From Escherichia coli (GTDB taxonomy: Bacteria; Pseudomonadota; Gammaproteobacteria; Enterobacterales; Enterobacteriaceae): a stretch of 64,000 nt of DNA. The stretch is from assembly GCF_003334785.1 (NCBI RefSeq), contig NZ_QOWV01000003.1, one strand, 5' to 3'. Under the pieces are notes generated by a model. The model searched no databases, was not told the DNA's origin, and was given only the letters and a program-made list of their open reading frames with translations. Numbering within the stretch: position 1 is the stretch's first letter; every line of letters starts with the position of its first letter. Position numbers and translations under genes: made by a program. Positions 37,005 through 37,110 of this stretch are shown here, in pieces.

Positions 37005-37110
37005 TCGCCCCTCACCCCAATGGGGAGAGGGAGAAAACGAGCGCAATATTCAATATCGAGCACAATCGGTCCCCTCGCCCCTCTGGGGAGAGGGTTAGGG
37101 TGAGGGGGCC
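37005..37110. repeat. GC-rich imperfect palindromic intergenic repeats (two related units)
   Basis: CGCCCCTCACCCCAATGGGGAGAGGGAG (37007-37033) and TCCCCTCGCCCCTCTGGGGAGAGGGTTAGGGTGAGGGGG (37070-37108) between convergent yjdP and phnP. Confidence 0.6.

Follow-up and report, generated by a model that had tools for sequence, protein, structure and literature searches.

The element treated here has entered the literature several times under different names. According to Holder 2015 (PMC4666352), the earliest description of the motif is that of BoxC (Bergler 1992 on envM; Leung 1991); it reappeared as the PIT element (Hoyne/Maher 2000), and Holder 2015 named it TMECO. Kaplan 2016 (PMC5100583) describes the same family as the G-quadruplex motifs HPG1/HPG2. 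Holder lists 23 TMECO copies in MG1655 and 3610 copies in 262 proteobacterial genomes (PMC4666352). A stem-loop survey (PMC2267715) recovers E. coli BoxC as 22 copies with a 50-nt model, against 56 bp and 32 copies in earlier work. The three-block consensus, in the form tested here, is CCCTCNCCC-N3-6-GGGNGAGGG-N3-GGGNGAGGG[G/T/C/-] (Holder 2015, PMC4666352).

When copies are aligned together with their flanks, two sub-types can be told apart by their 5' flanks, with type A (loop TTA) being preceded by ..GC.C.AT.CGGTC and type B (loop CCG) by ..CGTTTTCT. The 3' flanks are semi-conserved in both types, and read GAA(A/C)AGGCC.GCA or CATCAGCGCGCA. At five K-12 loci besides the one considered below, type-A and type-B copies likewise form pairs, lying on opposite strands; the pair described here is divergent, as is that at lldD-trmL, whereas the other four are convergent.

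A BoxC doublet between yjdP and phnP

The window analysed is the whole of a 64-kb stretch of Escherichia coli DNA, in which yjdP and phnP converge on a gap of 146 nt (36985-37130), as delimited by the stop side of yjdP at 36984 and the 3' end of phnP at 37131. Window positions are converted to NC_000913.3 by an offset of 4,277,213, anchored on phnP (4,314,344-4,315,102 versus window 37131-37889). The features of the locus are as follows.

36655-36984, plus strand: yjdP coding sequence (DDRRRQL repeat protein), the upstream convergent gene, from the ORF list and the RefSeq annotation of the identical K-12 locus
36985-37007, unstranded: left flank of the gap, GGTTGGGTATGGAGCAGGCATCG, retained by most alleles in the allele alignment
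37005-37013, plus strand: 9-nt direct repeat TCGCCCCTC, partner at 37075-37083; end points of a 70-bp deletion (alleles L005 and L006)
37009-37031, minus strand: unit 1, truncated type-B BoxC copy, CCCTCTCCCC ATT GGGGTGAGGG; C block and one G block forming a hairpin only, second G block lost
37032-37044, minus strand: type-B-specific 5' flank GCGCTCGTTTTCT, conserved as ..CGTTTTCT in 10 type-B copies from E. coli, Klebsiella, Cedecea and RIT691
37045-37056, unstranded: central spacer AATATTCAATAT between the divergent copies, read from the sequence; not common to the XH990 allele
37057-37071, plus strand: type-A-specific 5' flank CGAGCACAATCGGTC, conserved as ..GC.C.AT.CGGTC in 10 type-A copies
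37071-37094, plus strand: arm of the 24-nt direct repeat, partner at 37008-37031; end points of a 63-bp deletion (allele L002)
37072-37107, plus strand: unit 2, complete BoxC / PIT / TMECO copy, type A with one mismatch, CCCTCGCCCC TCT GGGGAGAGGG TTA GGGTGAGGGG, from the consensus match
37085-37108, plus strand: canonical G-quadruplex motif GGGG AGA GGG TTA GGG TGA GGGGG inside unit 2, read from the sequence; group HPG1 (PMC5100583)
37108-37130, unstranded: right flank of the gap, GCCAGCGCGCACATTCCCTCTCA, resembling the CATCAGCGCGCA 3' flank or spacer of other BoxC copies
37131-37889, minus strand: phnP coding sequence, last gene of the phn operon and the downstream convergent gene, from the ORF list and annotation

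A first-pass annotation of this DNA had drawn attention to a pair of related GC-rich units in the gap, and the pair is real. A repeat search returns two 24-nt stretches, 37008-37031 (CCCCTCACCCCAATGGGGAGAGGG) and 37071-37094 (CCCCTCGCCCCTCTGGGGAGAGGG), which are 88% identical and spaced 63 nt apart; the degenerate repeat pattern is unique to the gap within the window, with 0.00 occurrences expected by chance (100 shuffles). Both strands of the gap fold more stably as RNA than shuffled controls, at -64.9 and -63.8 kcal/mol (z -3.0 and -3.4, respectively). The same annotation had set the units apart from the REP elements elsewhere in the window, as they indeed are: the REP tail CTTATCMGGCCTAC has 19 matches at 7 sites in the window and 0 in 36985-37130. 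Likewise, Rfam naRNA4, a REP-derived family, matches at other window sites only, and the gap has no REP or BIME member.

The tentative suggestion that the family might be box C-like was correct. Unit 2 is the 36-mer CCCTCGCCCCTCTGGGGAGAGGGTTAGGGTGAGGGG, with three blocks in the order C-G-G, and is an exact fit to CCCTCNCCC-N3-6-GGGNGAGGG-N3-GGGNGAGGG in a pattern search, being the sole full match in the window. The identical 36-mer is TMECO no. 22 in Table 1 of Holder 2015 (PMC4666352), where it is assigned to type 'A mm' at 4,314,285-4,314,320; subtracting the offset gives window 37072-37107, that is, unit 2 itself. In Table 1 of Kaplan 2016 (PMC5100583), this copy is HPGQ 51 of group HPG1, located between yjdP and phnP with its midpoint at 4,314,309, 101 nt past yjdP and 24 nt from phnP. 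Thus, two published catalogues place the element at the same coordinates, and both the element and this very copy have already been published under four names (BoxC, PIT, TMECO, HPG1/HPG2). The additions made here are minor, namely that the B partner is truncated, that each sub-type has flanks of its own, that the doublet was inserted into a zero-length convergent junction, where the deletion junctions lie, and that the orientation is polymorphic.

Unit 2 bears the type-A signature of a TTA second loop and the 5' flank ..CAATCGGTC. Four runs of at least 3 G separated by loops of 1-7 nt are present at 37085-37108, and this G-quadruplex core is identical to the HPG1 consensus GGGAGAGGGTTAGGGTGAGGG (PMC5100583). 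The Watson-Crick hairpin of unit 2 is predicted at -12.9 kcal/mol by ViennaRNA, which models the hairpin only and not a triplex. Among ten K-12 loci compared, the unit 2 core is identical at fabI(envM)-ycjD, zntA-tusA, and pstB-pstA. The presence of the same 36-mer at fabI (envM), the locus of the Bergler 1992 reference for BoxC, supports the BoxC identity.

In the case of unit 1, the relationship is less direct, as it matches just a two-block sub-pattern, fails the three-block consensus on its own, and is for that reason treated as truncated. Its minus-strand sequence, GCGCTCGTTTTCT-CCCTCTCCCC-ATT-GGGGTGAGGG, corresponds to a type-B flank, a C block, and one G block; the alignment to type-B copies covers these three parts (the G block being the first one) and goes no further. 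Its DNA hairpin is predicted at -8.7 kcal/mol (z -2.9). Because the flanks put the two units on opposite strands and in different sub-types, they form a divergent doublet rather than a simple direct repeat, and tandem duplication is ruled out as the origin of the two units. The first-pass reading of a pair of related units thus holds for the 24-nt repeat; the units are not equivalent, as they lie in an inverted A/B arrangement, one of them truncated, and are not like units in tandem. As judged from blocks and flanks, the gap is a divergent B(-)/A(+) BoxC doublet whose B copy lacks one 12-nt G block. The missing third block is also why the locus was counted as a single element in Holder's three-block search: the BoxC catalogues require three blocks, and unit 1, short of one G block, is therefore unlisted. 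Outside the two units, the end of the left flank, GCAGGCATCG, appears to resemble the spacer or 3' flank beside other BoxC copies.

Distribution of the family

The 146-nt gap sequence has blastn matches in all 5426 complete E. coli genomes, at a median of 16 places per genome, of which 77,677 of 77,708 are chromosomal. A chance or single-copy sequence is ruled out by these matches and by the shuffles. The ten K-12 BoxC loci that were fetched are all intergenic. For comparison outside the species, a pattern for the phnP C-terminus was used to collect 18 enterobacterial loci, none of them from Escherichia although K-12 fits the pattern. Seven full TMECO matches are found in these loci, at places other than the junction, in Cedecea neteri, Klebsiella spallanzanii, and the isolate RIT691; six of the seven belong to A/B pairs on opposite strands, and most have the type-specific flanks seen in E. 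coli. This amounts to 7 matches in 148 kb of enterobacterial DNA versus 0 in 296 kb of non-enterobacterial loci, a result that agrees with Holder's count across proteobacterial genomes. The first-pass proposal of a distinct enterobacterial intergenic repeat family is borne out by the copy number in E. coli and by the copies in Cedecea, Klebsiella, and another enterobacterial genome.

Several copies lie in settings of independent interest. Two type-B copies, at yagA-yagE and xynR-argF, are within the cryptic prophage CP4-6 (NC_000913.3 281700-289700), and may be set beside Holder's statement that the TMECO motif is not associated with phages (PMC4666352). An association with phages was examined and rejected, as strong matches occur only in 'Campylobacter phage A18a/A11a', where the DNA is 100% E. 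coli pstCAB-phoU in UNVERIFIED records. The segments in question (MG065686.1 139598-142637 for A18a, and MG065691.1) contain pstCAB-phoU with its BoxC copy at 51-57% GC, and are almost certainly contamination or chimeric assembly. In K-12, a type-A BoxC copy with the unit 2 core lies inside the pstSCAB-phoU operon (NC_000913.3 3908495-3908530), 19 nt from pstA, and is a better site than yjdP/phnP for testing any RNA-level effects.

Insertion and decay at the junction

In Cedecea, Trabulsiella, Enterobacter sp. Ag1, Klebsiella michiganensis, K. grimontii, and others, the stop codon of phnP directly adjoins the 3' terminus of an oppositely oriented yjdP-like gene, and none of the 18 enterobacterial loci has a BoxC block within 260 nt downstream of phnP. 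Abutting genes that lack the element in related genera imply that the doublet is a later insertion into the yjdP/phnP junction, and the convergent junction that received it would have been of zero length.

Among E. coli strains both flanking genes are usually kept, the 846-bp yjdP-phnP region being present in 5383 of the 5426 genomes. The K-12 gap, in turn, is retained at 80% or more in 3100 of the 5426 genomes by blastn (57%), leaving about 43% that lack the K-12 form. Twelve alleles were fetched, and give the following series of gap lengths.

146 nt, K-12: divergent doublet with truncated B copy
143 nt, XH990 (L004, NZ_CP019359.1 359-501): complete doublet, with A on the minus and B on the plus strand
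95 nt, L003: four-block palindrome C-C-loop-G-G, B-type CCG loop still present
83 nt, L002: K-12 minus 63 bp between the 24-nt repeats
76 nt, O157:H7 (L005, L006): K-12 minus 70 bp between the 9-nt repeats
42 nt, L008: one G block remains
34 nt, L007: one C block remains
27 nt, Nissle, S88, and other strains: GGGG and a diverged right-flank copy only

The junctions of these alleles fall at the 24-nt repeat, at the 9-nt repeat TCGCCCCTC, or at the block repeats themselves. Allele L003 retains the outer block and the CCG loop that are missing from K-12 unit 1, a structure from which it follows that the K-12 allele descends from a form with an intact B copy and has since lost one 12-nt block. In the case of XH990, the core aligns with the K-12 core (37008-37107) at a score of 97 as the reverse complement and 34 directly, so that the doublet sits in opposite orientations between the same flanks; about 61 genomes have the XH990 form. 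The doublet may have been inverted where it lies, between its terminal inverted blocks, or the two orientations may stem from separate insertions.

At the other extreme, a 111-nt query across the 27-nt allele reaches at least 80% coverage in 2197 genomes, a figure that is an upper bound since other short alleles may align. The 27-nt allele is about 70% similar to the K-12 right flank, and it is on this similarity that a deletion relic is weighed against a pre-insertion state. Taken as a series, the alleles indicate decay of the doublet within E. coli. Holder reported that variability is raised around TMECO loci, by a mechanism described there as unclear (PMC4666352); this is the one reproducible correlate of the element, and the yjdP/phnP allelic series illustrates it at nucleotide resolution.

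The neighbouring gene varies as well. The yjdP coding sequence is 357-375 nt in L010, L011, and L012 versus 330 nt in K-12, with length varying via the DDRRRQL repeats, and yjdP is marked as a pseudogene with an internal stop in L002 and L008. Length variation and pseudogenes show that the gene beside the BoxC doublet is likewise unstable.

The interpretation that we consider very likely is that a BoxC A/B doublet was inserted into the yjdP/phnP junction and is decaying by repeat deletions and an orientation flip, without a dedicated local function. The main consequence of the doublet would then be local genetic instability. GC skew is positive across the window, in keeping with the known place of the locus on the clockwise replichore; the skew fits the plus strand as leading-strand sequence, which makes the G-rich strand of unit 2 the lagging-strand template. 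Folding of that template into a hairpin, triplex, or G-quadruplex could promote slippage among the repeated C and G blocks. For any RNA that reads through from yjdP or phnP, the doublet would add stable hairpins without U tracts to the 3' end.

Possible functions and comparison with other repeats

The first-pass annotation had also offered roles as a bidirectional terminator, an mRNA stabiliser, or a source of small RNAs, and these find no support. Such a role for the doublet, either in terminating transcription from both sides or in blocking 3'-to-5' exonucleases, as some REPs do, and so stabilising the two converging mRNAs of yjdP and phn, is suggested by its position exactly between two convergent stop codons, by the stable GC-rich hairpins on both strands, by the 6 of 16 K-12 HPG1 copies that lie between convergent genes (PMC5100583), and by documented roles of this kind for REPs (bioRxiv 10.64898/2026.03.23.713779). 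It is nevertheless unlikely. A terminator scan finds no U-tract terminator in the gap on either strand, and no T/U run follows any hairpin, the tails being AGAAAACG, GCCAGCGC, ACCGATTG, and CGATGCCT. PIT/BoxC elements were without promoter or terminator activity and had no effect on RNA polymerase in the work of Hoyne & Maher 2002, as summarised in PMC4666352. In addition, the E. coli genomes that lack the K-12 form keep both genes, and related genera have no spacer at the junction at all. The supplement text examined from two 3'-end mapping studies (TERMITe 2025 and Adams 2021, the latter on E. coli) mentions neither yjdP nor phnP, which is uninformative, phn being uninduced there. A small RNA, or one derived from a 3' UTR, would likewise draw on the stable structure of both strands, and deserves next to no credence: a promoter scan finds no sigma-70-like promoter in the gap, there is no terminator, and Rfam has no family at its gathering threshold there (E-values of 6 or more are noise), while the sequence is a 23-copy dispersed repeat and not a unique gene.

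A further proposal, made by Kaplan et al. 2016, is that such elements may switch between duplex, hairpin, triplex, and G-quadruplex and thereby regulate nearby transcription or replication, roles in termination and initiation being speculated upon (PMC5100583). Unit 2 does place a canonical G-quadruplex motif beside a complementary C block, and oligonucleotides fold as an ion-dependent G-quadruplex or as a hairpin by CD (PMC5100583). Type 'A mm' oligonucleotides form an intrastrand purine-motif triplex by CD and NMR, with a Tm of 70-82 C, and PIT elements are reported to block DNA polymerase in vitro (PMC4666352). When the complementary strand is present, however, only duplex is formed, and DMS footprinting in vivo gave no support for a stable triplex; Holder found no association with what the adjacent genes do, nor any favoured spacing from them (PMC4666352). 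No transcription-factor motif is associated with the element, which is dispensable at yjdP/phnP in many strains, and a structural switch is thus very improbable here. The idea that A/B doublets are BIME-like modules moved or flipped by a hypothetical HUH/RAYT-like or other structure-specific enzyme is quite unlikely. Were it true, the junction would record both an insertion into a zero-length site and an in-place inversion (K-12 versus XH990), and the 5' flanks ..CGGTC and ..TTTCT would serve for recognition or cleavage instead of being passengers.

The gap should carry a BoxC/TMECO doublet label and not that of a terminator or small RNA candidate. The locus is a compact natural example of a datable insertion followed by deletions between internal repeats of 9-24 nt and an orientation flip, traceable in 5426 genomes. 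The junction is therefore a convenient site for addressing two long-standing questions, namely if BoxC has any effect at all and by what steps it spreads and is lost.

Set against known systems, the gap is like an intrinsic terminator in having GC-rich hairpins directly past the stop codons that can be read on both strands, and is unlike one in that its hairpins have no U tract and in the negative published tests of the family. With MITE-like repeats such as ERIC/IRU and RSA, the doublet shares a composite, largely palindromic module of about 100-130 bp that is present or absent at orthologous sites. In contrast to those repeats, the alleles compared show neither a visible target-site duplication nor terminal inverted repeats beyond the element's own blocks. 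The shortest (27-nt) allele still has flank-like sequence and no border duplication, and the zero-length junction comes from related genera that include no Escherichia. We know of no mobilising enzyme for BoxC.

The window itself offers REPs for comparison, in arrays that match Rfam naRNA4 at 48592-48968, 8429-8499, 19035-19218, and 46036-46116; other Rfam matches above the gathering threshold are the STnc630 sRNA (54634-54799, plus strand), the SraL sRNA (1051-1191, minus strand), and a SECIS_2 selenocysteine insertion element (21687-21741, minus strand). The first of these, a four-fold array (48.6-49.0 kb), probably corresponds to REP325 of yjdM-yjdN. REPs have an associated transposase, RAYT, and to our knowledge BoxC has neither an associated transposase nor documented RNA-level effects. 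For REPs, RNA-level roles are documented in some 3' UTRs, and REP325 is the subject of a recent study of 3'-UTR regulators (bioRxiv 10.64898/2026.03.23.713779). REP/BIME and BoxC have no sequence similarity. They are nevertheless alike in being short, GC-rich, imperfect palindromes that are strictly intergenic, are present in tens to hundreds of copies, and often lie in 3' regions. In both families two sub-types alternate in inverted orientation with characteristic linkers, and in this respect the A/B doublets of BoxC are BIME-like.
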